From NCBI RefSeq assembly GCF_003790525.1, contig NZ_CP033635.1: a stretch of DNA of 64,000 bases. One strand, written 5' to 3'. The notes beneath the pieces are model-generated. The model had not been told where the DNA came from. It saw only the letters and a program-made list of their open reading frames with translations, and ran no database searches. Below, piece after piece: positions 6,394 through 61,140 of this stretch. Every line of letters starts with the position of its first letter. The stretch's first letter is position 1. This DNA comes from Escherichia coli. GTDB lineage: Bacteria > Pseudomonadota > Gammaproteobacteria > Enterobacterales > Enterobacteriaceae. Position numbers and translations under genes: made by a program.

Positions 6394-6442
6394 TCCGTCA
6401 ATTCTCTGATGCTTCGCGCTTTTTATCCGTAAAAAGCTATAA

Positions 6443-6459
6443 TGCACTAAAATGGTGCA
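6443..6459 (+). promoter_or_regulatory. NtrC site overlapping the glnL promoter
   Basis: tgcactaaaatggtgca dyad about 25 nt upstream of the glnL start. Confidence 0.65.
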
Positions 6460-6480
6460 ACCTGTTCAGGAGACTGCTTT

Positions 6481-45078: not shown

Positions 45079-45196
45079 AACGCCTCCTGACGCAACAACT
45101 TACCCGCACAAAATAGAATTGTGCTGTACAAACGTCCAGTTTGAAAGAAGTTTCCTGCGAGGCGCTACGCAAAACGATCGTTAATTTTCATTATTT

Positions 45197-45234
45197 TATC
45201 CCACAATATGAGATGGAGTTTATATTGTGGGATA
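45197..45234. promoter_or_regulatory. Perfect 13-bp inverted repeat, candidate operator in the rmuC / IclR-operon intergenic region
   Basis: tatcccacaatat (45197-45209) and atattgtgggata (45222-45234) are exact reverse complements separated by 12 bp, about 60 bp upstream of the IclR-family gene start. Confidence 0.5.
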
Positions 45235-45294
45235 TATCACCTTTTCCCCACGTCATTATGTGGAACACTTCAGCAATATCATCAGGAGAAACGT

Positions 45295-46062
45295 ATGGCA
45301 GAAACCTCTTCAACCACCGCAGGCGCACAAACGTTATTACGTGGACTGGCGGTTCTTAATGCTGTTTATAACGGCTGCCATGACCTAAAAAGTATCGGCG
45401 AGTTCACCGGCACGACCCGGAGCACAACCCATCGTTTAGTCACCGTTCTGGTGGAACAACGCTACCTGCGCCATGTCCCAACGCAGGGCTACCAACTGGG
45501 TGCCAAACTGATCGAATTCGGTGCCAGAGCACTGGAAAGCACCTCGCTGTACGAAATTGCCCAGCCCGTTTTGCAACGCCTTGCCCGTTACACCCTGGAC
45601 ACCGTGCATCTGGGGATCGTTGAAGGCGACGAAGTGCTGTATCTGGAGAAGATCAACAGTCAGCGCGGGCTGGAAATGCGCTCACGCCCAGGCCATCGCA
45701 TGCCACTGGCAATCACCGGCATCGGCAAAGCATTGATACTCAACCGAACAGAAGAAGAGTGGCGCACGCTGTTTAAGACCTGTGGTGATGAAACAAAACT
45801 GGGCGCATTTATTCAGAACATGCGTCGTTATGCCGCCAGTGGTTTTGCTTTTGATCTGGAAGAGAACGAGCCGACTATCCGTTGCGTTGCAGCGCCGGTT
45901 TACAACGCCCGGGATGAAATTGTGGCGGCTATTTCTGTCGCCAGTACCACCACGTATATGTCGCTGGCGCGTCTGGAAGAACTGGCACCTTACGTCAAAT
46001 CCTGTGCAGAAGAGATATCCGCTGAACTGGGCTGGGGTAAGCACGTCCGCAAAGATAAATAA
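45295..46062 (+). CDS. IclR-family transcriptional regulator
   Basis: ATG at 45295 with aggag RBS; N-terminal HTH region (LKSIGEFTGTTRSTTHRLVTVL) and C-terminal IclR effector-like domain. Not in the K-12 order as recalled. Confidence 0.8.
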   Translation: MAETSSTTAGAQTLLRGLAVLNAVYNGCHDLKSIGEFTGTTRSTTHRLVTVLVEQRYLRHVPTQGYQLGAKLIEFGARALESTSLYEIAQPVLQRLARYTLDTVHLGIVEGDEVLYLEKINSQRGLEMRSRPGHRMPLAITGIGKALILNRTEEEWRTLFKTCGDETKLGAFIQNMRRYAASGFAFDLEENEPTIRCVAAPVYNARDEIVAAISVASTTTYMSLARLEELAPYVKSCAEEISAELGWGKHVRKDK

Positions 46063-46085
46063 ACCATGATTAAAGGAAACGACTA

Positions 46086-47090
46086 ATGCCGGGAGCACCC
46101 TCATTTATTGCCCTGGACTGGGGAACGTCATCGCTTCGGGCATGGCGTTTTGGCGAATCACCAAATCCACAAGAAAAACGTGAATTCCCCTGGGGGATCA
46201 TGAAATTACCCTCCCAGGCAGCAACACGTGAGGACGCTTTCCACGATACGTTTTTACGTGTCTGCGGCGACTGGCTGGCACAAACCCCATGCCCGGTACT
46301 GGCTTGCGGCATGCTCGGCAGTGCGCAAGGGTGGCAACCAGCAGCTTATTTACCTTGCCCGGTCACTCTCGAGGGTCTGGCGAAGCAGTTGACGCCAGTT
46401 ATCCACCAGCAGCAGACAATGCTGCACATCATTCCTGGCGTGATTAAAGAAGGTGAAATGCCCGAAGTGATGCGTGGCGAAGAGACACAAATCTTCGGTG
46501 CTATCTCGATGGAACCGGCCCTGCAAAACGCGATCCATCAGGGTATGCCAGTGCTGATAGGCTTACCCGGCACACATGCGAAATGGGCAGTAGTTGAAAA
46601 CAACACCATTACCGATTTCCGAACCTTTATGACGGGCGAGTTATTTGATGTTTTATCCCGCCATTCGATTCTCGGTGCCACCATGCATCCTGGAGATGAA
46701 CCGCACTGGGATGCCTTCACCCACGGGCTGACAGCAGCACAAGAGCATCATCAGACCGGATTATTATCGACGCTGTTTTCGACCCGTTCGCGCCTGCTGA
46801 CCAGTAATCTTACGTCGTCCTCGCAGGGGGATTACCTTTCCGGATTACTGATAGGCCATGAATTATGCGGTCTGGCATCCAGTTTGCTACGTGATTTACC
46901 CGCCACAACACCGATCGCCTTAATCGGTAGCGCAAATCTGAACAGCCGCTATTCACAAGCATTCAGCCACGTTTTTCCCGACAGACAGATACACGCCATT
47001 CCTAATGCCACTGAACAGGGATTATGGCGAATCGCCCACGCTGCCGGGTTACTGTCCACCAACGCCAGGGAATGTACCCATGCCATTTAA
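46086..47090 (+). CDS. 2-dehydro-3-deoxygalactonokinase (DgoK)-family sugar-acid kinase
   Basis: 334-aa ORF with DgoK-family signatures IALDWGTSSLRAW, VMRGEETQIFG, PGTHAKW, FRTFMTGELF. Confidence 0.8.
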   Translation: MPGAPSFIALDWGTSSLRAWRFGESPNPQEKREFPWGIMKLPSQAATREDAFHDTFLRVCGDWLAQTPCPVLACGMLGSAQGWQPAAYLPCPVTLEGLAKQLTPVIHQQQTMLHIIPGVIKEGEMPEVMRGEETQIFGAISMEPALQNAIHQGMPVLIGLPGTHAKWAVVENNTITDFRTFMTGELFDVLSRHSILGATMHPGDEPHWDAFTHGLTAAQEHHQTGLLSTLFSTRSRLLTSNLTSSSQGDYLSGLLIGHELCGLASSLLRDLPATTPIALIGSANLNSRYSQAFSHVFPDRQIHAIPNATEQGLWRIAHAAGLLSTNARECTHAI

Positions 47091-47709
47091 GACGCTTTTG
47101 CAAAAAACCGGGTTAGTCGCCATTTTACGCGGCGTGAAACCGGATGAGATTGTCGCCATCGGTGAAAAACTGTACGCCGCCGGATTCCGCCTGATTGAGA
47201 TTCCTATGAACTCGCCGGAGGCGTTGCAAAGTATCAGTTTACTGCGCGACGCCCTGCCTAAGGATTGCCTGGTCGGAGCCGGAACTGTGCTTTCGGTAGA
47301 GCAGGTGGTTGCGGTTAAAGAGGCTGGGGGCCAGATTATCGTGATGCCGCATTGCGATACTGCGGTGATCCGTCGCGCCCGTGCGCTGGGTATGTATTGT
47401 GCGCCTGGCGTCGCCACGCCCACCGAAGCCTTTGCTGCCATTGAACATGGTGCTAATGCCATCAAGCTGTTCCCGGCTGAACAAATTACGCCAGAAGTTA
47501 CCAAAGCCTGGCGTGCGGTTATTCCACAATCCGTTCCGATGTTACCGGTTGGCGGTATCACACCGGAAACCATGGCGCGTTATCTGAGCCACGGCGCAAA
47601 CGGCTTTGGCCTCGGTTCTGCGCTATATCACCCCGGCATGACGCCAGAGCAAGTCTATGAAAATGCAGTACTGTTTATGAACGCATGGAACAATTTAAAT
47701 AGCAACTAA
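47080..47709 (+). CDS. KDPG/KDPGal-type class I aldolase (DgoA/Eda family)
   Basis: ATG at 47080 (MPFKTLLQKTGLVAILRGVKPDEI...); motifs AILRG, IEIPMNSP, GAGTVL, CAPGVATPTEAF, GGITPE resemble DgoA. Overlaps the kinase by 11 nt. Confidence 0.8.
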   Translation: MPFKTLLQKTGLVAILRGVKPDEIVAIGEKLYAAGFRLIEIPMNSPEALQSISLLRDALPKDCLVGAGTVLSVEQVVAVKEAGGQIIVMPHCDTAVIRRARALGMYCAPGVATPTEAFAAIEHGANAIKLFPAEQITPEVTKAWRAVIPQSVPMLPVGGITPETMARYLSHGANGFGLGSALYHPGMTPEQVYENAVLFMNAWNNLNSN

Positions 47710-47733
47710 CTGATAAATAAGGATATAAAAGCA

Positions 47734-48708
47734 ATGATAAAACATCTTACCTTACCGAAAAAAATGGCTGCAATGGTACTTCTTGCAGGCGCTGCCCTCA
47801 GCATTGCGCCTGTACAGGCAGCCTCCTACCCAACCAAACAGATCGAGTTAGTCGTTCCCTACGCTGCCGGAGGCGGTACGGATCTGGTTGCCCGTGCCTT
47901 TGCTGATGCCGCCAAAAACCATTTACCCGTCAGCATCGGGGTTATCAATAAACCTGGCGGAGGCGGTGCTATCGGCCTGAGTGAAATCGCCGCTGCCCGC
48001 CCTGGCGGTTACAAAATTGGTTTAGGCACGGTTGAACTGACCACCCTTCCCAGCCTCGGAATGGTGCGTTTTAAAACCAGCGATTTTAAACCCATTGCCC
48101 GTCTAAACGCGGATCCGGCTGCTATCACCGTCCGTTCTGATGCGCCGTGGAATAGCTATGAAGAATTTATGACTTACGCCAAAGCGAATCCCGGAAAAGT
48201 ACGCATTGGTAACTCAGGCACCGGAGCTATCTGGCATCTGGCGGCAGCTGCACTGGAAGACAAAACGGGTGCGAAGTTTTCTCATGTCCCGTATGACGGC
48301 GCAGCCCCTGCCATTACAGGCCTGTTAGGCGGGCATATTGAAGCGGTTTCCGTAAGCCCAGGAGAAGTTATCAACCATGTGAAAGGCGGCAAGCTGAAGA
48401 CACTGGTAGTGATGGCGGATGAGCGAATGAAAACCATGCCTGACGTCCCGACGTTAAAAGAGAAAGGCGTTGATCTCTCCATCGGCACCTGGCGCGGCCT
48501 GATTGTGTCGCAAAAAACGCCGCAGGATGTGGTGGATGTTCTGGCAAAGGCAGCAAAAGAGACGGCTGAAGAGCCTGCATTCCAGGATGCACTGCAAAAG
48601 TTGAATCTCAACTATGCATGGCTTGACGCTGCCAGCTTCCAGACCCAAATCAGCGAACAGGAAAAGTACTTTGACGAGTTGCTGACTCGCCTGGGCCTGA
48701 AAAAATAA
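47734..48708 (+). CDS. tctC: Tripartite tricarboxylate transporter periplasmic substrate-binding protein (TctC/Bug family)
   Basis: 324-aa ORF with signal peptide (MAAMVLLAGAALSIAPVQAAS) and Bug/TctC-like sequence; aggat RBS. Confidence 0.8.
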   Translation: MIKHLTLPKKMAAMVLLAGAALSIAPVQAASYPTKQIELVVPYAAGGGTDLVARAFADAAKNHLPVSIGVINKPGGGGAIGLSEIAAARPGGYKIGLGTVELTTLPSLGMVRFKTSDFKPIARLNADPAAITVRSDAPWNSYEEFMTYAKANPGKVRIGNSGTGAIWHLAAAALEDKTGAKFSHVPYDGAAPAITGLLGGHIEAVSVSPGEVINHVKGGKLKTLVVMADERMKTMPDVPTLKEKGVDLSIGTWRGLIVSQKTPQDVVDVLAKAAKETAEEPAFQDALQKLNLNYAWLDAASFQTQISEQEKYFDELLTRLGLKK

Positions 48709-48724
48709 ACCTGAGGTACGGTTG

Positions 48725-49231
48725 ATGAACACAAAACAGTCTGTTGCTCAACTCGCCGTACCGCACCGCAAGCGCCTTTCATCAACGATGGTGGTGGCGC
48801 TGTTACTTTGTGTGGTTGCTGGCGCGGTGATGATTAATGCCGCTGATTTTCCAGCAACTGCCATTGAAACGGATCCCGGTGCAAGTGCCTTCCCTACCTT
48901 CTATGCCTGTGCCCTGATTGTGCTCGCTGTCTTGCTGGTGATACGCGATCTTTTGCAGGCAAAACCAGCCTCTTGCGCCAACGCACAGGAAAAACCGGCA
49001 TTCAGGAAAACGGCAACAGGAATTGCGGCAACCGCGTTTTATATTGTGACGATGAGCTACTGCGGTTATCTCATTACTACTCCTGTTTTCCTCATCGTCA
49101 TTATGACGTTGATGGGCTACAGGCGATGGGTACTCACACCGGGTATTGCGCTGCTGTTAACGGCAATCCTCTGGTTGCTGTTTGTCGAAGCGTTACAGGT
49201 GCCATTGCCTGTCGGCACATTTTTCGAATAA
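48725..49231 (+). CDS. tctB: Tripartite tricarboxylate transporter small membrane subunit (TctB family)
   Basis: About 168 aa, four predicted hydrophobic segments; sits between TctC-like and TctA-like genes. Start at ATG 48725 (TTG 48722 is an alternative). Confidence 0.65.
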   Translation: MNTKQSVAQLAVPHRKRLSSTMVVALLLCVVAGAVMINAADFPATAIETDPGASAFPTFYACALIVLAVLLVIRDLLQAKPASCANAQEKPAFRKTATGIAATAFYIVTMSYCGYLITTPVFLIVIMTLMGYRRWVLTPGIALLLTAILWLLFVEALQVPLPVGTFFE

Positions 49232-49243
49232 CAGGGGCCAGCA

Positions 49244-50734
49244 ATGTTTGAAAGTGAACTTTTAACTCAGGGTTTTTCGACATTACTCAATAATCCTCAG
49301 GCGCTGCTGTTTGCCACTTTTGGGGTGATGCTGGGTATTGTGATTGGCGCTTTGCCTGGTCTGACAGCGACCATGGGTGTGGCGATTTTGCTGCCTTTCA
49401 CCTACGGCATGGAGCCTGTTTCTGGCTTGTTGATGATTTGCGGCGTCTTTTTTGGTGGCGTCTACGGTGGTTCTATCACCGCAATTTTGCTCAAAATTCC
49501 CGGAACGCCTGCCGCCGCAGCCACCGCTATTGATGGTTATGAGCTGACGAAACAGGGAAAAGCAGGGCTGGCATTGAGTGCCGCCACGTTCTCTTCCTTT
49601 AGTGGCGGAACGCTCAGCATTATCGTGCTGATGTTTCTCTCTCCGGTACTTGCCAGTTGGGCGCTGAAATTTAGTGCCTCGGAGTCCTTCGCCCTGGCAA
49701 CCTTCGGACTGAGCATTATTGCCAGTATTTCCGGTGAGTCACTGATTAAAGGGCTGATTGCCGGGGTTGGCGGATTGCTGATCGCAACGATAGGCCTTGA
49801 TCCAATGGGCGGTTTTCCACGGTTTACAGGTGGATTTGTGGAGCTGATGAATGTGCCATTTATCCCGGTGATGATTGGTTTATTTGCTGCTTCAGAAGCA
49901 TTCCGCTCTATGGAGCAAAACCAGCAAATTCGTCAGGGGGCGAAGGTGGCTATCGGCAGTCTGTTACTGCCCTGGCAAACACTACGCCGCATTGCATTAA
50001 CCATTTTGCGCTCATCAGGATTAGGGGTTTTTATCGGCATGATCCCCGGTGCGGGGGCGGATATTGCAGCTTTTGTTGCCTATAACGAAACTCGTCGTTT
50101 CAGTAAGACACCAGAAAACTTTGGTAAGGGTGAAATTAAAGCTGTGGCCTCCTGTGAGGCAGGCGCGAATGGCTGCACCGGTGGCGCATTGTTACCTATG
50201 CTGACGCTGGGGATCCCTGGCGATGCGGTAACCGCCATCATGCTGGGCGCGTTAACGTTACAGGGAATGCAACCAGGCCCGCTGATGTTTACCGACCACG
50301 GCGATATGGTTTATACACTGTTTGTCGGCATGATCTTCTGTTACTTCATGCTACTAGTTCTTGGACTGCTCTCTTTGAAAGTCATCGGTAATGTGGTGAA
50401 AATTCCCGGCAATATTCTCACACCGATGATCCTCGCACTTTGTGTGGTCGGGACTTATGCGTTGAACAATAGCCTGTTTGATGTTGGCATTATGCTGATT
50501 GCAGGCGTGGTGGGCTATTTCATGCAGAAAGGAGGATATCCGGCATCACCCGTAGTGCTGGCATTGATTATGGGGCCAATGGCGGAAAGTAATTTTCGCC
50601 GTGCGCTGTCGCTTTCTGGTGGGTCACTCGACTTTCTGTATACCCGACCGATAACTCTGGCATTGCTGACTCTGGCAGCCTTTACGCTACTGACGCCAAT
50701 AATCCGCAAAATAATGCGTTTACGGCGTCAATAA
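49244..50734 (+). CDS. tctA: Tripartite tricarboxylate transporter large permease (TctA family)
   Basis: 496-aa polytopic membrane protein with the duplicated TctA/DUF112-type glycine-rich architecture (e.g. GALPGLTATMG, GMIPGAGADIAAF). Confidence 0.8.
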   Translation: MFESELLTQGFSTLLNNPQALLFATFGVMLGIVIGALPGLTATMGVAILLPFTYGMEPVSGLLMICGVFFGGVYGGSITAILLKIPGTPAAAATAIDGYELTKQGKAGLALSAATFSSFSGGTLSIIVLMFLSPVLASWALKFSASESFALATFGLSIIASISGESLIKGLIAGVGGLLIATIGLDPMGGFPRFTGGFVELMNVPFIPVMIGLFAASEAFRSMEQNQQIRQGAKVAIGSLLLPWQTLRRIALTILRSSGLGVFIGMIPGAGADIAAFVAYNETRRFSKTPENFGKGEIKAVASCEAGANGCTGGALLPMLTLGIPGDAVTAIMLGALTLQGMQPGPLMFTDHGDMVYTLFVGMIFCYFMLLVLGLLSLKVIGNVVKIPGNILTPMILALCVVGTYALNNSLFDVGIMLIAGVVGYFMQKGGYPASPVVLALIMGPMAESNFRRALSLSGGSLDFLYTRPITLALLTLAAFTLLTPIIRKIMRLRRQ

Positions 50735-50742
50735 CTGATATC

Positions 50743-50769
50743 GCTCCCCGAAGTTGGGGAGCGTTTTTT
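50743..50769. terminator. Bidirectional terminator between convergent tctA and udp
   Basis: Hairpin gctccccgaagttggggagc followed by a T-run. Confidence 0.65.
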
Positions 50770-51532
50770 ATTTCAGCAGACGACGCGCCGCTTCCACCAC
50801 GATTTTCACCGCATGGCTTTCGGTTTGTTTCATCGTCTCAGCATTCGGGATCTCTTGCTGGGTGCGGTTAACGATAACCCCCGCTACCATACCGGCACGC
50901 AGGCCCTGACTTGCACACATGGTCAGCAGGGTTGCAGATTCCATTTCATAGTTCATTACGCCCATCGCCTGCCACTCTTCCATAGAACCTTTAAAGTGAC
51001 GAACTACGCGACCAGAGTAAGTATCGTAACGTTCCTGACCCGGGTAGAAGGTATCAGAAGAAGCCGTCACACCAACGTGAGTGGTGGCACCAATTGACTT
51101 CGCCGCTTCAACCAGCGCAGTCGTACATTCGAAATCAGCGACAGCCGGGAATTCCAGCGGTGCGAAGTGCAGGCTCGCACCATCCAGACGAACAGACGCC
51201 GTGGTAACCAGGACATCGCCAACATTAATATGCGGCTGAATAGCGCCTGTTGTGCCGATACGCAGGAAGGTGCGAATGCCCAGCTGTGCCAGCTCTTCAA
51301 CAGCAATAGAGGTAGACGGGCCGCCGATACCGGTAGAGCAGACGATAACAGGTTTACCATCCAGCTCTGCACGCCAGGTGGTGAATTCGCGATGAGATGC
51401 CAGCTTAACCGGCTTATCCATCAGCGCGGCGATCTTTTCCACACGATCCGGGTCGCCAGGGACGATGGCAAGCGTAGCCCCTTGTAAATCGTTTTTAGTG
51501 AGGCCGAGATGAAAAACATCAGACTTGGACAT
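50768..51532 (-). CDS. udp: Uridine phosphorylase
   Basis: Start taken at [31 protein letters not shown] (253 aa). Confidence 0.93.
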
Positions 51533-51654
51533 ATACAACTCCTCTGTGAATCGGTTTAGTCAGAAGAAGCAAAAAGACACTTTACCGAAGGGTTTAACAT
51601 TTTTTCGTGATACTCATCACCATGACGAAAATGCGTTGCATAAATTTACCCGCC

Positions 51655-51690
51655 AAAAGTGATGCAAATCACATAAATCACTCTTCATTC
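51655..51690. promoter_or_regulatory. CRP/CytR-type operator region of the udp promoter
   Basis: Minus-strand tgtgatttgcatcact resembles the CRP half-site consensus TGTGA-N6-TCACA; a second gtgat-containing repeat is adjacent. Confidence 0.5.
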
Positions 51691-51793
51691 TGCAGGACTG
51701 CATAAAAGATGAGCCGATTCAGGCAATGTGATTTGTTGCATGCTGACTATAGTTAACATTGCGCAACATTTTTATAAGGGTACGGAGAATACC

Positions 51794-52603
51794 ATGGCAA
51801 CAACACAACAATCTGGATTTGCACCTGCTGCATCGCCTCTCGCTTCGACCATCGTTCAGACTCCGGACGACGCGATTGTGGCGGGCTTCACCTCTATCCC
51901 TTCACAAGGGGATAACATGCCTGCTTACCATGCCAGACCAAGGCAAAGCGATGGCCCACTGCCAGTGGTCATTGTAGTGCAGGAAATTTTTGGCGTGCAT
52001 GAACATATCCGCGATATTTGTCGCCGTCTGGCGCTGGAGGGGTATCTGGCTATCGCACCTGAACTTTACTTCCGCGAAGGCGATCCGAATGATTTTGCCG
52101 ATATCCCTACGCTGCTTAGCGGTCTGGTAGCAAAAGTGCCTGACTCGCAGGTGCTGGCCGATCTCGATCATGTCGCCAGTTGGGCTTCCCGCAACGGCGG
52201 CGATGTTCATCGTTTAATGATCACCGGATTCTGCTGGGGTGGACGTATCACCTGGCTGTATGCCGCGCATAATCCACAACTGAAAGCAGCGGTGGCATGG
52301 TACGGCAAATTAACCGGCGATAAGACGCTGAATTCACCGAAACAACCTGTTGATATCGCAACCGATCTTAACGCGCCGGTTCTCGGCTTATATGGTGGTC
52401 AGGATAACAGCATTCCGCAAGAGAGTGTGGAAACGATGCGCCAGGCGCTGCGGGCAGCAAACGCGAAAGCAGAGATTATCGTGTACCCGGATGCAGGGCA
52501 TGCGTTCAACGCCGATTATCGTCCGAGCTATCATGCCGAGTCTGCGAAAGACGGCTGGCAGCGAATGTTGGAATGGTTTACACAGTATGGTGTTAAAAAG
52601 TAA
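51794..52603 (+). CDS. ysgA: Dienelactone-hydrolase-family protein
   Basis: Start taken at MATTQQSGFAPAASPLASTIVQT; alpha/beta hydrolase with CWGG nucleophile elbow. Confidence 0.85.
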   Translation: MATTQQSGFAPAASPLASTIVQTPDDAIVAGFTSIPSQGDNMPAYHARPRQSDGPLPVVIVVQEIFGVHEHIRDICRRLALEGYLAIAPELYFREGDPNDFADIPTLLSGLVAKVPDSQVLADLDHVASWASRNGGDVHRLMITGFCWGGRITWLYAAHNPQLKAAVAWYGKLTGDKTLNSPKQPVDIATDLNAPVLGLYGGQDNSIPQESVETMRQALRAANAKAEIIVYPDAGHAFNADYRPSYHAESAKDGWQRMLEWFTQYGVKK

Positions 52604-52669
52604 CGCCATAGTCGCTAAATCTGATGATTAAGCTCACACAATTTCAACGATTTTTTTAATCTCAAAACC

Positions 52670-52698
52670 ATACAGCATCAAAAAATTTGTTGCTGTAT
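52670..52698. promoter_or_regulatory. 8-bp perfect inverted repeat with A/T-rich 13-bp spacer, candidate regulator site upstream of the hydrolase operon
   Basis: atacagca-tcaaaaaatttgt-tgctgtat; a related copy gcaaaaatttcgttgctgt lies at 52747-52765. Confidence 0.45.
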
Positions 52699-52859
52699 GC
52701 CACTCTTTGACTCCCTTCACATTCGTCATCACACCACCTGCTGAATGCAAAAATTTCGTTGCTGTGCGGCAAACTTTTTTCCTGTTTTGTGCCGCTTTTC
52801 TCCTGAATACTCGTTCTCAGAACAACTGGATCGTTTAAACATCAGACAGGAGATTTACC

Positions 52860-53528: not shown

Positions 53529-53533
53529 CACCG

Positions 53534-54394
53534 ATGGTACAGGTTACGCTTTGCGCATCGTCGTTGGGATATCTTTTCCCGCAGAATGAAACGCAAGATT
53601 TACGTCTACATAGCGCTTTTAAACATGCGGTAAATCTGTATTCAGACGCGGGAACATTCATCACTCTGTTGTGTGCGCAAACGTATCTGAATCTCCCTGA
53701 TGCAGCCAGAGTCTGGCTACCTGAATGTTGGGACTGGCGAAGAGAGATTGCCCATTCAGATCCCATTCAGTTAACCCCAGGCTTACTGCGGACACCTCGA
53801 TTTTGTGTGGCGCTCGAAAACGCAACGCTCTGGCAGTCGCCATTTGTGGGGGGAATGCTGACACTTGAGGCATTCCCTTTGGTTTTCCAGCACTACCCAA
53901 CGATGGCATCGCAACGGCTTTTATTTTGTCTGGAACATAACGTTCAAAGCACATTGCACCTGCCGGATAGTCTCACGCACCAGGGATTAGCGATTATGGA
54001 GCATCCAGATGCGCTGGAACGCCAGGTGCCACAACTGATCGGCTTTGGTAAAGGCTTAACGCCCGATGGAGATGACTATTTGTTGGGCTATCTGGCAGCA
54101 CTCTGGTTATGGCAACTCCCTGCACCACTTGCCGATCATCAATACCGGTTGCAGCAGGTAATTGATCAACATGCGCACAACACCACGGATATCAGTCGTC
54201 ATTATCTGGAGCGTGCGCTTCAGGGACATTTTTCAGAACCGATTTGCCAGTTACTCGCACAACTGGTTGGGAGTGCATCGGCAATGACAATCGCATCCTG
54301 TGCAGAACAGGTCATGCAATTTGGCGCAACGTCAGGAGTAGATTGCCTTGCAGGAATGCTGCATGGCTTTCGAACCCTGAACACCATAAATTGA
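53534..54394 (+). CDS. DUF2877-family protein (YahE/YlbF-like)
   Basis: 286-aa ORF starting 5 nt after the preceding stop; resembles YahE / AllH-type proteins that accompany FdrA-like genes (from memory). Confidence 0.6.
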   Translation: MVQVTLCASSLGYLFPQNETQDLRLHSAFKHAVNLYSDAGTFITLLCAQTYLNLPDAARVWLPECWDWRREIAHSDPIQLTPGLLRTPRFCVALENATLWQSPFVGGMLTLEAFPLVFQHYPTMASQRLLFCLEHNVQSTLHLPDSLTHQGLAIMEHPDALERQVPQLIGFGKGLTPDGDDYLLGYLAALWLWQLPAPLADHQYRLQQVIDQHAHNTTDISRHYLERALQGHFSEPICQLLAQLVGSASAMTIASCAEQVMQFGATSGVDCLAGMLHGFRTLNTIN

Positions 54395-54488
54395 TTTCAA
54401 CCTTTTCTCCCGTAGCCCGTTTATGGGGCTACACGGGGATGCTTTGCCCGAATTTTGCTATCGGGCGGAATGAAACAGGCGTAACAGC

Positions 54489-56048
54489 ATGAAAGTTAAA
54501 TATAAAGTTTTCAGTAATCTTTATCAGGACTCAGTTTCTCTGATGCAGATTTCCGCGCAAATCAGCAAGTTGCCCGGTATTCAACAGGCCTCGGTCGTCA
54601 TGGGAACACCCAATAATCTCGAGCAATTGAGCGATGCGGGTCTGGGTAACGAAATCAACGCCAGTCCCAATGATTTAGTGATTGCAGTCATGGGTGAAGA
54701 AGATATTTGCAATGAAGCACTGGTACTGGCCCAGCAACGTCTGACCAGCAAACCCGATGATGAAACGGATAGTGGCATTAAAACACCGGAAAAGGTCAGC
54801 CTGGAAATGGCACTGGAAGCCGAGCCCGAAGCCAACCTGGCACTCATTTCTGTACCGGGAGACTACGCCGCCGCCGAAGCAATTAAAGCGTTAAACCTCG
54901 GAATGAACGTGATGATGTTCAGCGATAACGTCAGTATCGTGCAGGAAAAATCCATCAAAACGCTTGCCCGAGAACGTCAGCGCATCGTAATGGGACCTGA
55001 CTGTGGAACCGCCATTGTTAACGGCATTCCGTTAGGCTTCGCTAATGTGGTGAAACGCGGAGCAATTGGTGTTATTGGCGCGTCAGGCACCGGGCTACAG
55101 GAAGTGACTTGCCGAATCGACCAGCTCGGAGCGGGTATTTCTCAGGCGTTGGGAACAGGCGGACATGATCTCAGTGAAGAGATTGGTGGAATATCGATGC
55201 TCTTCGCTTTAGATGCGCTGGCGCAAGACGATGAAACTCGCGTGATTGTGCTTATTTCAAAACCGCCTTCACCGATCGTTGCCCGGACTATTCTGGAGCG
55301 TGCCGAGGCTTGTGGAAAACCCGTGGTGGTGAATTTCCTCGGTGCGAATCCGCATGATCTGGCACGTCCCAATATCACCGCGGCCACCACACTTGCCAGC
55401 GCCGCAAATATCGCCGTGGCGTTACTGAATGATCAACCACTTCCGACTATCGAGACCGAAATTTCCTGCGACGATCTCACAATGTTACAAAACGCCTGCC
55501 AGCGCCTGCCAGCCCATCGCCAGGCGATACGCGGTGTTTTCGCCGGAGGAACCTTCTGCTACGAAGCGCAACTTATCTGCCAACAAAAGGGATTCAGCGC
55601 AGCCTCCAATACGCCAGTTGCGGGTAATCGTGCTCTGGCAAATATCTGGCAAAGCGAAGATCACACGTTGATCGATATGGGCGACGATGATTTCACCCGT
55701 GGCAAACCGCATCCAATGATCGACCCGACTCTGCGCAATCAACGTCTGCTCAACGAACTCAACGACTCACACACTGCCGTCGTGTTATTCGACCTGGTAC
55801 TTGGTTATGGCGCTTCCACGACGCCTGCCAGCGAATTACTGGACCAACTTTCACACATCGACATGAATAACGCACCGTTGCTGATTGCGCACGTTTGCGG
55901 AACGGAAGCTGATCCGCAAATACGCAGTCAGCAGATAAGCGCACTACAAAATGCAGGGGTCATCATCGCCAGCAGCAATGCACAGGCGGCGTTATGGGCC
56001 AGCACCGTTGCACAGACTCAGTTGCAGAAAAAGGGGCTAAACGCATGA
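54489..56048 (+). CDS. FdrA/YahF-like protein (succinyl-CoA-synthetase-alpha-like, CoA-binding fold)
   Basis: 519-aa ORF with Gly-rich nucleotide/CoA-binding-like segments (VIGASGTGLQEV, GTGGHD). Confidence 0.7.
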   Translation: MKVKYKVFSNLYQDSVSLMQISAQISKLPGIQQASVVMGTPNNLEQLSDAGLGNEINASPNDLVIAVMGEEDICNEALVLAQQRLTSKPDDETDSGIKTPEKVSLEMALEAEPEANLALISVPGDYAAAEAIKALNLGMNVMMFSDNVSIVQEKSIKTLARERQRIVMGPDCGTAIVNGIPLGFANVVKRGAIGVIGASGTGLQEVTCRIDQLGAGISQALGTGGHDLSEEIGGISMLFALDALAQDDETRVIVLISKPPSPIVARTILERAEACGKPVVVNFLGANPHDLARPNITAATTLASAANIAVALLNDQPLPTIETEISCDDLTMLQNACQRLPAHRQAIRGVFAGGTFCYEAQLICQQKGFSAASNTPVAGNRALANIWQSEDHTLIDMGDDDFTRGKPHPMIDPTLRNQRLLNELNDSHTAVVLFDLVLGYGASTTPASELLDQLSHIDMNNAPLLIAHVCGTEADPQIRSQQISALQNAGVIIASSNAQAALWASTVAQTQLQKKGLNA

Positions 56049-57469
56049 ATACCTTATTTAATCAGCCTTTGAAGGTTGTGAACGCGGGACTACACAGTTT
56101 TGCTGACAATATTCAACATGCCGGGGGAAGCGCAATTGCACTCAACTGGCAGCCACCAGCACAAGGCGATATTGACGCTGGATTGGATCTGGCATCGTTG
56201 CTACGTCATCCCCTGGTAGAAAATGCCAACCAAATCGCCATGACACGTTATCTCGAAGCACAGCCCGTGCTGGTGGATGTCATGCTCGCTAAAGAGGCCA
56301 TTCCAGAAATGGCTGAACAAAAACGTATTTTGCACTCTGGCCCGCCGATTGCCTGGGAAGAGATGTGTGGTCCGGTAAAAGGGGCGATTATTGGTGCCAT
56401 GCTGTACGAAGGTTGGGCCACCAGCCAGCAAGACGCTGAAAACCAAATAAACGCAGGCGAAATCGACCTTGCCCCTTGTCATCATTATCACGCGGTTGGC
56501 CCAATGGCAGGCATCATCAGCCCGTCGATGCCGTTATGGGTGGTAGAAAACAAAACCAACGGCCACCGTACTTTTAGCAATTTCAATGAAGGTCTGGGTA
56601 AGGTTCTCCGTTTTGGCGCCAATAACGATGAAGTTCTCAATCGTCTGGCCTGGATGCGCGATGAACTGGCGCCGGCAATGAAAGCAGCAATCGCACAACA
56701 CGGCGAGCTGGAACTCAAGCCATTAATGGCGCAGGCGCTGCATATGGGGGATGAAGTTCATAACCGCAATGCTGCCGCTACCGGTTTGCTGATTAAGCGC
56801 CTGCTCCCGGCATTGCTGGCCTGCTCTCTTCCACAGGAACATATCCAGCGCGTCGTGGCATTTATCACCGGTAACGATCACTTCTTCCTCAATCTTTCGA
56901 TGGCCGCCTGTAAAGCAATGATGGATGCCGCCGCCAATGTACCGTTCAGTTCAATGGTTACGGTGATGGCGCGTAACGGGGTGAATTTTGGTATTCGGCT
57001 TTCCGGTACTGGCGATCGCTGGTTCCAGGCTCCTGCCAATGCCGTTGAAGGTCTGTTCTTCCCCGGATTTGGCGTCGACGATGCCGCTGCTGACCTGGGT
57101 GATAGCGCAATTACTGAAACCGCAGGTGTGGGTGGCTTCGCGATGGCGTCGTCTCCGGCGATCGTCAAATTTGTGGGAGGCACCCCTGCCGATGCCACCA
57201 ATAACAGCCGTCGGATGCAAGCCGTCACCCTCGGCGGTAACCCCGCATTTACACTTCCAGCCCTCAATTTTGCCCCCACCGCAGCAGGGATTGATGCGCG
57301 TAAAGTGACCGATCGCGGCATTTTACCGGTCATCAATACGGGTATCGCCCACAAACAAGCGGGGGTCGGGCAAATTGGTGCCGGGATCACCACTGCGCCG
57401 ATGGCCTGTTTTGTCGCCGCTGTACGTGCACTGGCGGAGATCGTCGCAAAGGAGAACCATCATGGTTAA
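56045..57469 (+). CDS. DUF1116-family protein (YahG/YlbE-like)
   Basis: Start at ATG 56045 overlapping the FdrA-like stop (ATGA); aagggg RBS 8 nt upstream; 474 aa. Confidence 0.65.
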   Translation: MNTLFNQPLKVVNAGLHSFADNIQHAGGSAIALNWQPPAQGDIDAGLDLASLLRHPLVENANQIAMTRYLEAQPVLVDVMLAKEAIPEMAEQKRILHSGPPIAWEEMCGPVKGAIIGAMLYEGWATSQQDAENQINAGEIDLAPCHHYHAVGPMAGIISPSMPLWVVENKTNGHRTFSNFNEGLGKVLRFGANNDEVLNRLAWMRDELAPAMKAAIAQHGELELKPLMAQALHMGDEVHNRNAAATGLLIKRLLPALLACSLPQEHIQRVVAFITGNDHFFLNLSMAACKAMMDAAANVPFSSMVTVMARNGVNFGIRLSGTGDRWFQAPANAVEGLFFPGFGVDDAAADLGDSAITETAGVGGFAMASSPAIVKFVGGTPADATNNSRRMQAVTLGGNPAFTLPALNFAPTAAGIDARKVTDRGILPVINTGIAHKQAGVGQIGAGITTAPMACFVAAVRALAEIVAKENHHG

Positions 57470-58418
57470 GCCACTGGCTGTCGTCGCGGTTGGCGGCAAT
57501 GCGCTCATTCAGGACGAGCAACGCAATAGTATTCCCGATCAATATGTTGCAGTGATGGAAAGCGTGCAGCATATCGTTGATATGGTTGAAGCCGGATGGG
57601 ACCTGGTGCTAACCCACGGTAATGGCCCGCAGGTGGGCTTTATTCTGCGCCGCTCTGAACTCGCCAGTAACGAAGTTTCTCCGGTTCCACTTGATTACGC
57701 CGTGGGTGATACACAAGGTGCAATTGGCTACATGTTCCAGAAAGCACTGCATAACGAATTGGCTCGCCGTGGCATAAACAAACCGGTAATTGCCCTGGTG
57801 ACACAAACGCGAGTCAGCCCACATGACGATGCTTTCGCCAGCCCCAGTAAACCAATTGGCGCGTTTCTCGATGAAGCAACGGCCCAACAACGCCAACAAC
57901 AACTCGGCTGGACGCTGATGGAGGACGCCGGGCGTGGTTGGCGGCGTACAGTTCCCTCTCCTGCCCCACTGGAAGTTATTGAGCACGACACCATCGCTCA
58001 CCTGGTGCGCCAGGGATATCTGGTTATTGCCTGCGGCGGCGGCGGTATTCCGGTGGTGCGAGACGGACAACAACTGAAAGGTGTAGAAGCCGTGATCGAT
58101 AAAGATCTGGCCTCCGCGCTGCTCGCCAGTCAGTTAGGCGCAGATCTGCTGGTGATCCCCACCGGTGTAGAAAAAGTGGCGATTAACTTTGGTACACCAC
58201 AACAACAGTGGCTCGACGCTATCAGCGTTGCCGAAGCGCAAACGCTGTTGCGGGAAGGTCAGTTTGGTGTCGGCAGTATGCAACCCAAAGTGGAAGCCAT
58301 TGTTGATTTCATCAATGCCAGCCAGCAACAAGGCAAACAGGCCAGCGGCCTGATTACTTCACCGCAAACCATAAAAGCAGCCCTGGCGCATCAGAGCGGT
58401 ACATGGATAACCCTTTAA
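57462..58418 (+). CDS. Carbamate kinase
   Basis: Start at ATG 57462 (MVKPLAVVAVGGNALIQ...), aggag RBS; amino-acid-kinase-fold motifs (VLTHGNGPQVG, IACGGGGIPVV); 318 aa. Confidence 0.8.
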   Translation: MVKPLAVVAVGGNALIQDEQRNSIPDQYVAVMESVQHIVDMVEAGWDLVLTHGNGPQVGFILRRSELASNEVSPVPLDYAVGDTQGAIGYMFQKALHNELARRGINKPVIALVTQTRVSPHDDAFASPSKPIGAFLDEATAQQRQQQLGWTLMEDAGRGWRRTVPSPAPLEVIEHDTIAHLVRQGYLVIACGGGGIPVVRDGQQLKGVEAVIDKDLASALLASQLGADLLVIPTGVEKVAINFGTPQQQWLDAISVAEAQTLLREGQFGVGSMQPKVEAIVDFINASQQQGKQASGLITSPQTIKAALAHQSGTWITL

Positions 58419-58434
58419 TTCTCTGGAGAACACA

Positions 58435-58824
58435 ATGACTACAACGCTTTTAGCCGTTAACGGAACGCTGATGCGCGGCCTGGAACTCAACCCAAATATG
58501 CAAAAAGCGGGCGGTATTTTTGTCCGTGAAGACCGAACTGACGCCCATTACCGGTTGTGGAGTATTAATGATCGCCATCCGGGAATGATTCGCGTGAATG
58601 AAGGAGGAACACACGTCGACGTAGAAATTTGGCAATTACCGCTGGCCAGTTTTGCCGCTCTGTTAATGAGCGAACCCGCTGGGCTGGCAATTGGCAAAAT
58701 CAAACTTGCCGATGGTAGCGAAGTGCTGGGCGTACTGGCAGAAAACTGGCTGACCGAAGGCCAACGGGAAATTACAGAACTGGGTAGCTGGCGCAAATAC
58801 ACCGGGCATTTTCATACTGTGTAA
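58435..58824 (+). CDS. AIG2 / gamma-glutamylcyclotransferase-like small protein
   Basis: 129-aa ORF; N-terminal LLAVNGTLMRG resembles the GGCT/AIG2 fold; ggag RBS. Confidence 0.55.
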   Translation: MTTTLLAVNGTLMRGLELNPNMQKAGGIFVREDRTDAHYRLWSINDRHPGMIRVNEGGTHVDVEIWQLPLASFAALLMSEPAGLAIGKIKLADGSEVLGVLAENWLTEGQREITELGSWRKYTGHFHTV

Positions 58825-58849
58825 CGCGCATTTATAAAGGGAACATACT

Positions 58850-60073
58850 ATGCGTAAAAAAGAAGAGAATCTGAATACGGCATCAGGATTGCGTATTGCC
58901 ATGATTTTGCTGGGTATTGCCGTCACACCTGTGCTGTTGTCATCCTCAAGCCTCGGCAATCAACTTTCCAGCGGCAGTTTAATTAGCGTCGTATTGTTAG
59001 GCGGCGTCATTCTGACCTTACTTTCAGCCATCACCATTAGCGTGGGAGAAAAAGCCCGCCTACCAACGTATGGCATTGTGAAATATTCGTTTGGCGAAAA
59101 AGGGGCCATCGCCATTAACATTTTGATGGCGATAAGTCTGTTCGGCTGGATTGCCGTTACCGCCAATATGTTTGGTCATTCGGTACATGACTTACTGGCT
59201 CAACATGGACTGGAAGTTCCACTGGCACTGTTAGTGGCGGCTGGCTGTGTCATTTTTGTCGCCTCTACGGCATTTGGCTTTGCCGTTCTGGGAAAAATTG
59301 CCCAGGTTGCCGTGCCGGTTATCGCGCTGGTGCTGTGTTACATCCTCTATGTGGCAACCCATACCGAAGTGGCAGTACCAGCGGCGATTGTGGAGATGAA
59401 TACAGGTGTCGCCGTTTCCACCGTTGTTGGCACCATTATTGTGCTGGTTGCCACACTGCCTGATTTCGGTAGTTTTGTGCATAACCGCAAACATGCGCTG
59501 ATTGCCGCAGGCGTGACGTTTCTGGTTGCCTACCCTCTGCTCTACTGGGCGGGTGCAACGCCGAGCGCCATTAGTGGTCAGGGATCTTTACTGGGTGCGA
59601 TGGCGGTATTCGGTGCGGTTCTGCCTGCGGCGCTGTTGTTGATTTTCGCCTGCGTCACCGGTAACGCGGGCAATATGTTCCAGGGCACGCTGGTGGTTTC
59701 CACACTGCTTACCCGCTTTCCCAAATGGCAGATTACCGTGGCGCTGGGTATCCTTTCCGCCATCGTAGGCAGTATGGATATTATGGCGTGGTTTATTCCG
59801 TTTCTGCTGTTCCTGGGTATCGCCACGCCACCCGTTGCCGGAATTTATATCGCTGACTTTTTCTTTTATCGCCGTAATGGCTATCAAGAGTCAGTGTTAG
59901 CCCAGGAGTCACAGATTAAAGTGCTGACATTCGCAGCATGGATCATAGGCGCAGCGGTTGGCTTTATGACCGTAAAAGGCTTATTCACCCTGACGACGAT
60001 CCCTTCGGTAGACTCGATTCTGGTGGCATGTATCGCTTATGCGATTCTCAGTCGGGCAAGTCAACACCGCTAA
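58850..60073 (+). CDS. NCS1-family nucleobase:cation symporter (cytosine/hydantoin/allantoin permease-like)
   Basis: 407-aa ORF with about 12 hydrophobic segments; resembles CodB-type permeases. Confidence 0.7.
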   Translation: MRKKEENLNTASGLRIAMILLGIAVTPVLLSSSSLGNQLSSGSLISVVLLGGVILTLLSAITISVGEKARLPTYGIVKYSFGEKGAIAINILMAISLFGWIAVTANMFGHSVHDLLAQHGLEVPLALLVAAGCVIFVASTAFGFAVLGKIAQVAVPVIALVLCYILYVATHTEVAVPAAIVEMNTGVAVSTVVGTIIVLVATLPDFGSFVHNRKHALIAAGVTFLVAYPLLYWAGATPSAISGQGSLLGAMAVFGAVLPAALLLIFACVTGNAGNMFQGTLVVSTLLTRFPKWQITVALGILSAIVGSMDIMAWFIPFLLFLGIATPPVAGIYIADFFFYRRNGYQESVLAQESQIKVLTFAAWIIGAAVGFMTVKGLFTLTTIPSVDSILVACIAYAILSRASQHR

Positions 60074-60150
60074 TTCCTGGGTATACTCAGGCAATGATTA
60101 CGGCTGAATCTGGAGAGATTCAGCCACTTTACCACTGACCAGGAAGCCTT

Positions 60151-61047
60151 ATGTTCATCTCAGACGAAACGCTTCGTGTTATTCATCTGGTCGCCAGACA
60201 CCAGAGCATTACCACCGCAGCCGAGCAGTTAAATAAAGTCCCTTCCGCCATCAGTTACACCATCAAGAAAGCGGAAGAGAGCCTGGGCGTTGAACTGTTC
60301 ATTCGTAAGGGACGCTATATTGAATTATCGCCAGCGGGAAGTTACTTCATCGAACATAGCAAAACTATTCTTGGCGACCTGGAAGCATTAAAGCGCAACA
60401 CAGTGCTGATTCACGATGGTATTGAGCGTGAACTGACAATTGCGGTAAACAATATTATTCCTGGTGATTTGCTGGTGGCATTTATTCGAGATTTTGAACG
60501 GCAATTCACATCAACAACACTGACGGTAGATCTTGAGGTATACAACGGCTGCTGGGATGCGCTGTACAGTAAGCGTGCCGATCTGGTCTACGGTGCTCCT
60601 CATGCAGTGCCAAGCAGTGAAGGCATCATTAGCGAACCGGTCGGACAAATGGAATGGGATTTTGTCGTCAGCCCACTCCACCCACTGGCAGCGAAGCGGC
60701 ATCCATTAGAAAACAGTGAATTGCGTCATTATCCAGCGGTTTGTATCCGCGATACCTCCGTTAACTTCCCCCCGATGCAAGCCTGGTTGTTGGAAGGACA
60801 AAAACCCATTTTTGTTCCTGACTTCGCTACGGCAATCGCCTTAATAGAACAAAACGTCGGTATTGGTTATATTCCACATCATCTGGCATTGCCGTTATTG
60901 AACAGCGGTAAATTGCTTAAAAAGCCAATGCGCGAACATAAACACGCCACCAAGTTATTTCTTGCCGCTCGTTCCGATGGTATGGGCAAAGCCTGTCAGT
61001 GGTGCATAGAATATTTAAGAAATCCGCAATTAATTTTCTGTTCCTGA
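60151..61047 (+). CDS. LysR-family transcriptional regulator
   Basis: 298-aa ORF with N-terminal LysR HTH (LVARHQSITTAAEQLNKVPSAISYTIKKAEESLGVELFIR) and substrate-binding domain. Confidence 0.8.
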   Translation: MFISDETLRVIHLVARHQSITTAAEQLNKVPSAISYTIKKAEESLGVELFIRKGRYIELSPAGSYFIEHSKTILGDLEALKRNTVLIHDGIERELTIAVNNIIPGDLLVAFIRDFERQFTSTTLTVDLEVYNGCWDALYSKRADLVYGAPHAVPSSEGIISEPVGQMEWDFVVSPLHPLAAKRHPLENSELRHYPAVCIRDTSVNFPPMQAWLLEGQKPIFVPDFATAIALIEQNVGIGYIPHHLALPLLNSGKLLKKPMREHKHATKLFLAARSDGMGKACQWCIEYLRNPQLIFCS

Positions 61048-61079
61048 AGATCCACATCATACCTGGCATACATAGCAAA

Positions 61080-61105
61080 ATGGCTTCCGGTGTTGGAAGC
61101 CATTA
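61080..61105. terminator. Bidirectional terminator between the LysR gene and metE
   Basis: Hairpin aatggcttccggtgttggaagccatt. Confidence 0.6.
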
Positions 61106-61140
61106 TTGTGCTGCAATTTACAATGACTCGTTAATACTCA

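Follow-up and report, generated by a model that had tools for sequence, protein, structure and literature searches.

Introduction

In Escherichia coli strain APEC O1, Li et al. described in 2012 a 16-kb 'tkt1 genomic island' of 15 open reading frames (ORFs) between metE and ysgA, and beside it a '~5 kb islet of 6 ORFs between udp and rmuC' (PMC3349570). No flanking direct repeats, integrases or transposases were seen at the island, and its foreign origin was inferred from guanine-plus-cytosine (GC) content (PMC3349570). The BEN2908 genome paper (2026) lists the tkt1 region as GR 29 and reads its genes as a nitrogen-acquisition module (PMC12928451). Here we analyse a stretch of 64,000 nucleotides of E. 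coli contig NZ_CP033635.1 (assembly GCF_003790525.1; hereafter the window), in which two accessory blocks flank the core gene pair udp-ysgA: block 1 lies in the gap between rmuC and udp, and block 2 in the gap between ysgA and metE. The arrangement of both blocks has been known since 2012 and is an ordinary, explained feature.

Integration hotspots have fixed core flanks and variable content; many are without mobile-element genes, and their turnover is credited to homologous recombination in the flanks. For the E. coli chromosome, the concept is said to come from Touchon et al. 2009 and Oliveira et al. 2017. Both gaps of the window resemble such hotspots in the fixed core genes that flank their variable content, and the mechanism proposed below fits this well-known model. 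They differ from it in that the same cargo is found at the same site across genera, which makes them older and stabler than typical hotspot turnover would suggest.

We consider it probable (about 0.7) that the two blocks are independent, old catabolic operons that are not self-mobile, reside in fixed gaps and are exchanged by homologous recombination in the flanks. Occupied and empty forms of each gap would coexist as alleles, which lineages would swap via homologous recombination in ubiE-rmuC, udp-ysgA and metE-metR. Because the gaps are so close to each other, one recombination tract would usually carry both blocks. In addition, occasional illegitimate events would add, stack or delete modules in the ysgA/metE gap. 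An earlier note on this DNA had read the locus as a plasticity zone with gain or loss by homologous recombination, and this is broadly borne out by at least five gap states, by the cargo found in about 25 species and by a probable recombinant tract in strain BL21.

Anatomy of the occupied gaps

Block limits were set by blastn of the window against K-12-type DNA. Window positions 43000-63500 are 100% identical to the environmental isolate E. coli SMS-3-5 (NC_010498.1), and the remaining window matches the RefSeq SMS-3-5 record at 99.96-99.98% identity, the rrn spacer excepted. In the RefSeq annotation, the gene order is rmuC (minus strand), six plus-strand genes of block 1, udp (minus), ysgA (plus), eight plus-strand genes of block 2 and metE (minus). 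The two gaps are 1.8 kb apart.

Block 1 (45175-50769, plus strand) is an accessory operon of 5,595 bp (5.6 kb) that stands in place of a 43-bp K-12 filler, the ancestral udp terminator. Its left flank is the core gene rmuC (43651-45078, minus strand), which adjoins udp in most Enterobacteriaceae. On the right, the junction falls in the stop codon of the core gene udp (50768-51532, minus strand), and the udp product of block 1 carriers is therefore 254 instead of 253 amino acids long, with one added C-terminal Lys codon.

Block 2 is a discrete plus-strand module of 8,444 bp (8.4 kb; 52591-61034). The core gene ysgA (51794-52603, plus strand) receives its last three codons and its stop (VKK and stop) from the left end of block 2, and the YsgA C-terminus reads GVKK here versus GGKKSL in K-12. 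At the right end, the module meets a 110-bp tail (61035-61144), which holds a hairpin (61079-61103) that serves as terminator for the LysR gene of block 2 and for metE. The last four codons and the stop of the LysR gene lie in this tail, past the end of the module. The core right flank, metE (61141-63402, minus strand), encodes a protein that ends in RRG here versus RLG in K-12. By blastn against K-12, block 2 and tail together (52602-61144) stand in place of a 50-bp filler. Both insertions had previously been placed exactly in intergenic gaps. The two gaps were identified correctly; 'exactly' does not hold, as the junctions alter the last codons of udp, ysgA and metE.

Some features of the flanks deserve mention. 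An SOS-box-like sequence, CTGTACAAACGTCCAG (45124-45139), is located upstream of rmuC and shows few substitutions across all enterobacterial loci compared. The block 1 junction lies just past this sequence, and the rmuC promoter region is thus intact. Within E. coli, metE is unusually polymorphic: SMS-3-5 and K-12 are 90.7-99% identical per 150 bp in a mosaic pattern, and the divergence nears that between E. coli and E. albertii. A foreign 3' end of metE was considered and dropped, since the polymorphism runs over the whole length of the gene without a distinct foreign flank. Likewise, a foreign ysgA 3' end as a recombination footprint (79% identity to K-12 in a 100-bp window scan) was discarded. 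Base-by-base alignment attributed the low identity to a scan window that covered the junction itself, and showed only scattered polymorphisms in the remainder of ysgA.

Distribution in E. coli and states of the gaps

Among 5,426 complete E. coli genomes, block 1 was found in 1,457 and block 2 in 1,559; the latter count includes 129 places on plasmids, and about 1,500 genomes have a chromosomal copy. Both blocks occur in one stretch in 1,427 genomes, and about 93% of the genomes with either block on the chromosome contain both, as expected for loci so close together. Given these counts and the empty sites of K-12, the blocks are accessory and not universal, as the earlier note had held.

The ysgA/metE gap has at least five states in E. 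coli. It is empty in K-12 (state 1), holds a tssD (extended Hcp) gene with two small ORFs (state 2), or contains block 2 by itself, the form seen here and in BL21 (state 3). In state 4, block 2 is joined by an rpiR-tkt-ptsG-hxlB module, and in state 5 by both this module and the tssD module. The rpiR-tkt-ptsG-hxlB module is present in 1,136 genomes, the tssD module in 849, and the short-form junction, in which block 2 leads directly into the tail, in 362. In most other carriers of block 2, the match to this junction ends exactly at window position 61034. What was published as one island is therefore composed of separable, stacked modules, and the window represents its short form. Between SMS-3-5, BL21 and a B2-type strain with the tkt1 module, the copies of block 2 are 99.2-99.3% identical. 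Block 2 has the same two ends in three contexts: the chromosome studied here, the B2 strains (with rpiR-tkt-ptsG-hxlB after it) and plasmids of poultry E. coli.

Comparison with the tkt1 island confirms the correspondence. Block 2 of the window is situated at the same ysgA/metE site, has the same genes and matches the leftmost 8.4 kb of the B2 island at 99.2% identity, and block 1 equals the 6-ORF udp/rmuC islet. In contrast to the published island, the window is devoid of the rpiR-tkt1-ptsG-hxlB and tssD modules, and block 2 meets the tail at 61034/61035. Since only the left 8 ORFs are present, with the break located by comparison with B2 strain FDAARGOS_1298, the window is a short variant of the tkt1 island.

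The tssD module itself (4947-6654 and 24274-25981 in two of the extracted loci) comprises an orphan tssD gene for a C-terminally extended Hcp of 377 amino acids and, after it, two small ORFs with a repeat in common that is 77% identical between them. By its gene content, it looks like a set of type VI effector and immunity genes. The module is pseudogenised in at least one B2 strain. The 110-bp tail of the window also comes after the tssD module in other strains, and is the only part of that module present here.

The rmuC/udp gap has only two main states in Enterobacteriaceae. Only one of the 5,426 genomes, HS-02, shows a 1.3-kb stretch in this gap that aligns with the left part of block 1 at about 80% identity, interrupted by numerous single-base gaps. 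This stretch (locus 3903-5313) joins the right end of a K-12-type filler, and udp is annotated as truncated. As a scar of block 1 this 'remnant' was set aside, as a decayed scar and an assembly artefact are indistinguishable here.

A probable recombinant tract in BL21

BL21 and K-12 both belong to phylogroup A. BL21 has both blocks in the SMS-3-5 arrangement. Relative to K-12, it contains a tract of ~28 kb, blocks included, that reaches from about pldA/recQ to rmuC and is 96.5-98.6% identical per kb. The neighbouring sequences on both sides are 99.1-100% identical to K-12, with more divergent patches farther out. This pattern fits the replacement of the whole segment through its flanks, and the tract is suggestive support for the recombination mechanism.

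Two further islets that are absent from K-12 were seen in BL21-AI. One, between uvrD and yigE (locus 2089-2991), encodes a protein of the SAM hydrolase/halogenase family. The other, between corA and yigF (locus 5200-6865), has genes for DUF943 and YPO3983-family proteins and, after them, a fragment of corA.

Ancestry of the empty sites and occurrence in other genera

We compared 80 loci around udp from different species (a set without E. fergusonii, E. marmotae and E. ruysiae) and mapped the window proteins onto them. In most Enterobacteriaceae, the udp/rmuC gap measures about 140 bp and contains one homologous terminator, AAAAGGCCGAACGCGTCGGCCTT. This filler is common to K-12, E. albertii, clade E69, Citrobacter, Salmonella, Enterobacter, Leclercia and Kluyvera; clade E69 is an Escherichia sister clade (record 'E. 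coli E69') with core flanks 94.1% identical to E. coli. The occupied rmuC/udp allele does not contain AAAAGGCCGAACGCGTCGGCCTT and has a different hairpin instead. At ysgA/metE, the empty allele of K-12 has its ysgA end and its hairpin in common with E. albertii, and its filler is likewise absent from the occupied allele. No sequence derived from block 2 was found in this filler, and no scar of either block was found in the K-12-type empty sites. Because the empty sites of K-12 have conserved fillers of their own, which occur in outgroups and not in the occupied allele, they are old alleles and not products of deletion. The suggestion of the earlier note that K-12-like strains underwent lineage-specific deletion is not supported in view of these fillers, which at rmuC/udp extend to many genera.

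The earlier note had also proposed to look for deletion scars in genomes without the blocks. In K-12-type sites this search was negative, as described above. It was positive in Buttiauxella sp. B2, where the 'empty' ysgA/metE gap of 155 bp (locus 8760-8925) still contains some 95 nt from the 5' regulatory region of block 2. These 95 nt align with block 2 of B. noackiae, and their core motif is also found in the E. coli, E69 and plasmid copies. Block 2 was therefore lost by deletion in that lineage.

Block 1 occurs in identical position, order and orientation in Buttiauxella warmboldiae, a Pseudocitrobacter, Klebsiella indica and Metakosakonia massiliensis. The M. massiliensis locus has no rmuC (locus 5546-7358), and block 1 is directly beside ubiE. 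In all three of these loci that retain rmuC, the left junction of block 1 comes after one conserved motif, and an operator-like palindrome is found in all four. The block 1 proteins share 48-91% amino acid identity with those of E. coli and are as diverged as the core flanks, or more so, which argues against recent transfer. Block 2 is located between ysgA and metE in Buttiauxella noackiae (51-89% amino acid identity). In clade E69 it has the short form with the same tail, and its nucleotide identity to E. coli is 95.4%, versus 94.1% for the core flanks. Sister species within Buttiauxella and within Pseudocitrobacter differ in occupancy.

The ysgA/metE gap is a cargo hotspot across Enterobacteriaceae. 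In about 25 of the 80 species it holds 0.85-7.4 kb of cargo unrelated to block 2. This cargo includes a radical-SAM maturase (beside a sulfatase in Metakosakonia), a BglG-type antiterminator with a GH1 glycosidase and a third ORF, a GH3 glycosidase, a family-3 solute-binding protein, a fimbrial usher and a short-chain dehydrogenase. Also found are three clustered ORFs arranged like an ABC transporter, of which the binding protein was the part scanned. No recombinase was detected among the ysgA/metE cargo proteins scanned. At the other gap, udp/rmuC, block 1 is replaced in Yersinia and Serratia by 4-4.5 kb of different genes; judged by sequence, these ORFs appear to encode a phosphatase-like protein and a large membrane protein.

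These comparisons bear on the possibility that both blocks were ancestral to Enterobacteriaceae, or at least to Escherichia, and were deleted in K-12-like strains and most genera. The presence of the blocks at the same site in several genera, with a divergence at least that of the core flanks, the matching divergence of block 2 and core between E. coli and E69, and the real deletion scar in Buttiauxella sp. B2 all speak for such a history. However, one homologous terminator filler, missing from the occupied allele, recurs in the empty rmuC/udp sites of many genera, which can therefore not be independent deletions of that allele. K-12 and E. albertii, moreover, have a common empty ysgA/metE allele without a scar, and occupancy varies between sister species in Buttiauxella and Pseudocitrobacter. 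We thus regard ancestral presence with widespread loss as unlikely, and return to exchange of old alleles by recombination in the flanks.

Terminators and absence of mobility features on the chromosome

A GC-rich hairpin with a T-run (50742-50763), found by terminator scan, is common to the tctA operon and udp. It takes the place of the ancestral udp terminator in the occupied allele and folds at -19 to -20 kcal/mol on both strands (z -3.5 and -4.3). The hairpin in the tail (61079-61103) folds at -21 and -20 kcal/mol on the two strands, with z about -2.5; the terminator scanner gave no call for it despite its stable folding. Both hairpins are thus stable on both strands and agree with the shared bidirectional terminators that had been noted near the block ends.

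None of the 14 block genes is a mobility gene according to RefSeq annotation and family profile searches. Direct or inverted repeats are absent from the junctions, and the repeat search returned only short, chance-level matches elsewhere. No tRNA gene is close to the blocks. The only tRNA genes of the window are in the rrn operon (25267-25461), 20 kb off, where the spacer contains tRNA-Ile and tRNA-Ala; the RefSeq SMS-3-5 record has a tRNA-Glu spacer at that operon. This mismatch reflects either another assembly version or rrn operons that were resolved differently. For this chromosome, the annotation, repeat and tRNA searches accordingly uphold the statement of the earlier note that integrase, transposase, tRNA site and flanking direct repeats are missing.

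Plasmid copies of block 2

The situation differs on plasmids. Block 2 is present on about 80 plasmids at 93.5-94.5% identity, nearly all from E. coli and many from poultry. The homology spans window positions 52591 to 61034, which are the two ends of the chromosomal module. The right end on the plasmids is the exact start of the tkt module in B2 strains and of the tail in this window. On the plasmid that we examined closely, p1 of E. coli 64.1, a direct repeat of 136 bp lies on either side of block 2 (7609-7744 and 16295-16430 of the extracted stretch), and its copies are 97% identical. Part of this repeat resembles the transposase-proximal end of elements of the IS200/IS605 family, and about 85 plasmids contain the repeat at full length. 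Remnants of the insertion sequences (IS) IS66, IS3 and IS1 abound around the plasmid block 2. The plasmid copy shares 91.7-93.7% identity with those of E. coli and E69 and was therefore derived from a third lineage.

Neither the window nor any of the chromosomal loci contains the 136-bp repeat. Flanking IS or IS-end repeats, the signature of an IS-bounded module, are found at the plasmid copy only and not in the window. Hence, the absence of mobility features holds for this chromosome and not for block 2 in general, and the chromosomal interpretation stands. IS or att-like repeats at the junctions, which would have told against the earlier note, were not found on the chromosome; the plasmid copy does have repeats that resemble IS200/IS605 ends.

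Two candidate features were rejected. The 136-bp repeat was considered as a structured RNA and gave no Rfam match (plasmid stretch 7000-17500). A common motif at the module boundaries (ysgA/block 2, block 2/tkt, block 2/tail, tssD/tail and the plasmid ends) was sought by eye, and only AT-richness and microhomology of 2-4 nt were seen.

The blocks could alternatively be classical integrative islands that were inserted through site-specific recombination or transposition, with subsequent loss of integrase, transposase and att repeats. Such an origin was raised by Li et al. in 2012 (PMC3349570). The discrete block 2 with its identical ends in three contexts would fit, as would the direct repeats similar to IS200/IS605 ends that bracket block 2 on about 80 plasmids amid IS66, IS3 and IS1 remnants. 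Against this, the chromosome is without repeat, IS remnant, integrase or nearby tRNA, and the plasmid repeat is missing from the window. The insertions swap out ancestral filler with no target duplication, their composition is host-like, and the block 1 junction is alike in several genera at genus-level divergence. Of the hallmarks of an integrative or pathogenicity island, namely an integrase or transposase, insertion at a tRNA or att site and a deviant composition, none is seen in the window. An integrative origin therefore appears improbable to us.

Composition of the blocks

The GC fraction is 0.520 for block 1, 0.513 for block 2 and 0.513 for the whole window. The codon distance to the core is 0.18 and 0.20 for the two blocks, versus 0.157 +/- 0.03 for core genes. 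Both blocks are thus host-like in composition, with codon usage only slightly farther from the core than core genes are from each other; a comparison of this kind had been suggested in the earlier note. The host-like composition of the short form seen here differs from the foreign origin that Li et al. derived from GC content.

Recent acquisition from distant donors, Azospirillum-like for block 1 and Vibrionaceae-like for block 2, as virulence islands specific to extraintestinal pathogenic E. coli is highly improbable: the six-gene cluster of block 1 does recur, about 67% identical in nucleotide sequence, on replicons of Azospirillum listed in the plasmid collection, the BEN2908 paper likens block 2 genes to Photobacterium (PMC12928451) and Li et al. 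tie the island to pathogenic strains of phylogroup B2 (PMC3349570), but GC content is host-like and codon usage only slightly off the core, the nearest relatives are other Enterobacteriaceae at the same site, the blocks are also found in the laboratory strain BL21, in SMS-3-5 and in a non-coli Escherichia clade, and their gene content is metabolic.

Predicted function of block 1

We infer the substrates and enzyme reactions of both blocks from profile matches and gene content. Block 1 begins with a gene for an IclR-family regulator (45295-46062, plus strand), which is KdgR/BhcR-like, with all NCBIfam matches under the equivalog cut-offs. It is followed on the same strand by a 2-dehydro-3-deoxygalactonokinase-like kinase (46086-47090). 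This kinase bears its RefSeq name and gave no match in the NCBIfam profile search; its orthologues in other genera match Pfam DGOK (PF05035). A DgoA-like 2-dehydro-3-deoxy-6-phosphogalactonate aldolase comes next (47080-47709, plus strand; NF006600, 320 bits, cut-off 207). The remaining genes (47734-50734, plus strand) are annotated in RefSeq as a tripartite tricarboxylate transporter, with a TctC/Bug binding protein (47734-48708), TctB (48725-49231) and TctA (49244-50734), and their orthologues match Pfam TctC, TctB and TctA. Upstream of the IclR gene, a 12-nt inverted repeat, ATCCCACAATAT / ATATTGTGGGAT (45198-45233), is probably the operator of this regulator. Its pattern, TCCCAyAtAT..GGGAT, is kept in the block 1 copies of four other genera.

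Two comparison systems are the dgoRKADT operon for D-galactonate in E. coli and the tricarboxylate transporter TctCBA of Salmonella. With the former, block 1 shares a DgoK-family kinase and a DgoA-family aldolase, and with the latter the three-component TctC/TctB/TctA transporter. Unlike dgoRKADT, block 1 has no DgoD dehydratase, its transporter is tripartite instead of DgoT of the major facilitator superfamily, and its regulator is of the IclR type instead of the GntR-type DgoR. Since the DgoA aldolase, the DgoK-family kinase and TctCBA are present and a dehydratase is missing, the simplest reading is that block 1 would serve the uptake and cleavage of a 2-keto-3-deoxy sugar acid. In this scheme, the TctCBA transporter would import the sugar acid, the DgoK-like kinase would phosphorylate it, and the DgoA-like aldolase would cleave the product to pyruvate and glyceraldehyde-3-phosphate. 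An IclR-type repressor would govern the operon.

Predicted function of block 2

The eight genes of block 2 are all on the plus strand. The first encodes a cysteine hydrolase (52860-53528) that resembles BiuH (NF050097, 279.8 bits, cut-off 370) and RutB (111.9 bits); it can be called BiuH-like only, as its score is under the NCBIfam equivalog cut-off. The next three genes encode an AllH-like DUF2877 protein (53534-54394), an AllF-like FdrA (54489-56048; NF004760, 496 bits, cut-off 433) and an AllG-like DUF1116 protein (56045-57469). The DUF2877 and DUF1116 proteins are named according to RefSeq, and their assignment to AllFGH follows PMC11326118. Together, these three genes (53534-57469) are paralogues of the three oxamic transcarbamylase subunits. 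In K-12, this enzyme is formed jointly by FdrA, YlbE (DUF1116) and YlbF (DUF2877), as shown biochemically (PMC11326118), and the BEN2908 paper gives the block 2 paralogues about 40% identity to FdrA, 46% to YahG and 47% to YqeA (PMC12928451). A carbamate kinase follows (57462-58418; TIGR00746, 364 bits, cut-off 358). The next product, of 129 amino acids (58435-58824), is homologous to the C-terminal domain of allophanate hydrolase only, and aligns to profile positions 440-563 and 472-595 of two allophanate hydrolase models. The operon is completed by a cytosine-permease-like NCS1-family permease (58850-60073; 146 bits, under the CodB cut-off of 326) and a LysR-family regulator (60151-61047), which is PunR/AllS-like by profile matches.

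Upstream of the first gene, a palindrome with arms ATACAGCA and TGCTGTAT separated by 13 nt (52670-52698) is kept in clade E69. In the plasmid copy, the arms differ (AAACA / TGTTT) and yet remain palindromic. This palindrome may bind a regulator.

The closest described counterpart is AllFGH with AllK in the anaerobic allantoin degradation of K-12 (PMC11326118, PMC9843812). As in that system, the FdrA, DUF1116 and DUF2877 genes adjoin a carbamate kinase gene, and the LysR regulator of block 2 resembles AllS. In contrast, the block 2 set is paralogous, with no all or allantoin genes nearby, and it is coupled to a BiuH/RutB-like hydrolase, a protein with the C-terminal domain of AtzF and an NCS1 permease. 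Co-location of biuH, allFGHK and codB has been reported in nitrifier genomes (PMC12625717). On the basis of its gene content, block 2 likely functions in the breakdown of a ureide or biuret-type compound with ATP formation. Here, the NCS1 permease would import a nitrogen-rich ureide or biuret-like compound, which the BiuH/RutB-like cysteine hydrolase would hydrolyse. The FdrA-DUF1116-DUF2877 paralogue of oxamic transcarbamylase would then release carbamoyl phosphate, from which the carbamate kinase would give ATP, ammonia and CO2, with the LysR protein as the presumed activator of the operon.

Discussion

Several points weigh against old, non-mobile catabolic operons exchanged through their flanks. 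A single case, BL21 versus K-12, was analysed, in which a change of state coincides with an apparent recombination tract in the flanks. The genomes of B and K-12 are mosaic throughout; this tract is hence suggestive, and it does not determine the direction of exchange. The first entry of either block into its site is left unaccounted for. Recombination between genera would be inefficient at a flank identity of 75-90%, and vertical inheritance from an ancient carrier, with numerous later losses, could instead account for the blocks seen at one and the same site in distant genera. Moreover, the identical ends of block 2 in three contexts, taken together with the IS200/IS605-like repeats on plasmids, hint at a mobilisation route specific to this module, for which simple recombination in the flanks gives no explanation. 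As to function, the missing dehydratase makes the substrate assignment of block 1 a guess, and the matches of the regulators in both blocks, as well as those to BiuH and CodB, are all under curated cut-offs.

A bolder combination of claims may also be put forward, albeit tentatively, and as a whole we find it doubtful. Both islets would be very old, site-tied presence/absence alleles across genera (Escherichia, Buttiauxella, Pseudocitrobacter, Klebsiella indica and Metakosakonia) without mobility machinery. At the same time, block 2 would encode an uncharacterised, ATP-yielding phosphorolytic pathway for a biuret/allophanate-type ureide, built on a paralogue of oxamic transcarbamylase, and ends of the IS200/IS605 type would move block 2 to poultry plasmids.

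Measured against the published accounts, recombinational exchange of the two old operons adds points of modest interest that we did not find in the literature on the locus. These are the ancestral empty alleles, the same sites across genera, the deletion scar in Buttiauxella, and the modular nature of block 2, whose plasmid copy is flanked by repeats similar to IS200/IS605 ends. The published tkt1 island is thus several separable modules rather than a single unit.

The operon that combines BiuH-like, AllFGH-like and carbamate kinase genes is common in pathogenic strains of phylogroup B2 and on poultry plasmids. The locus provides a small, clean case, suited to textbook-style use, of accessory metabolic operons that are retained and exchanged without mobile-element machinery.

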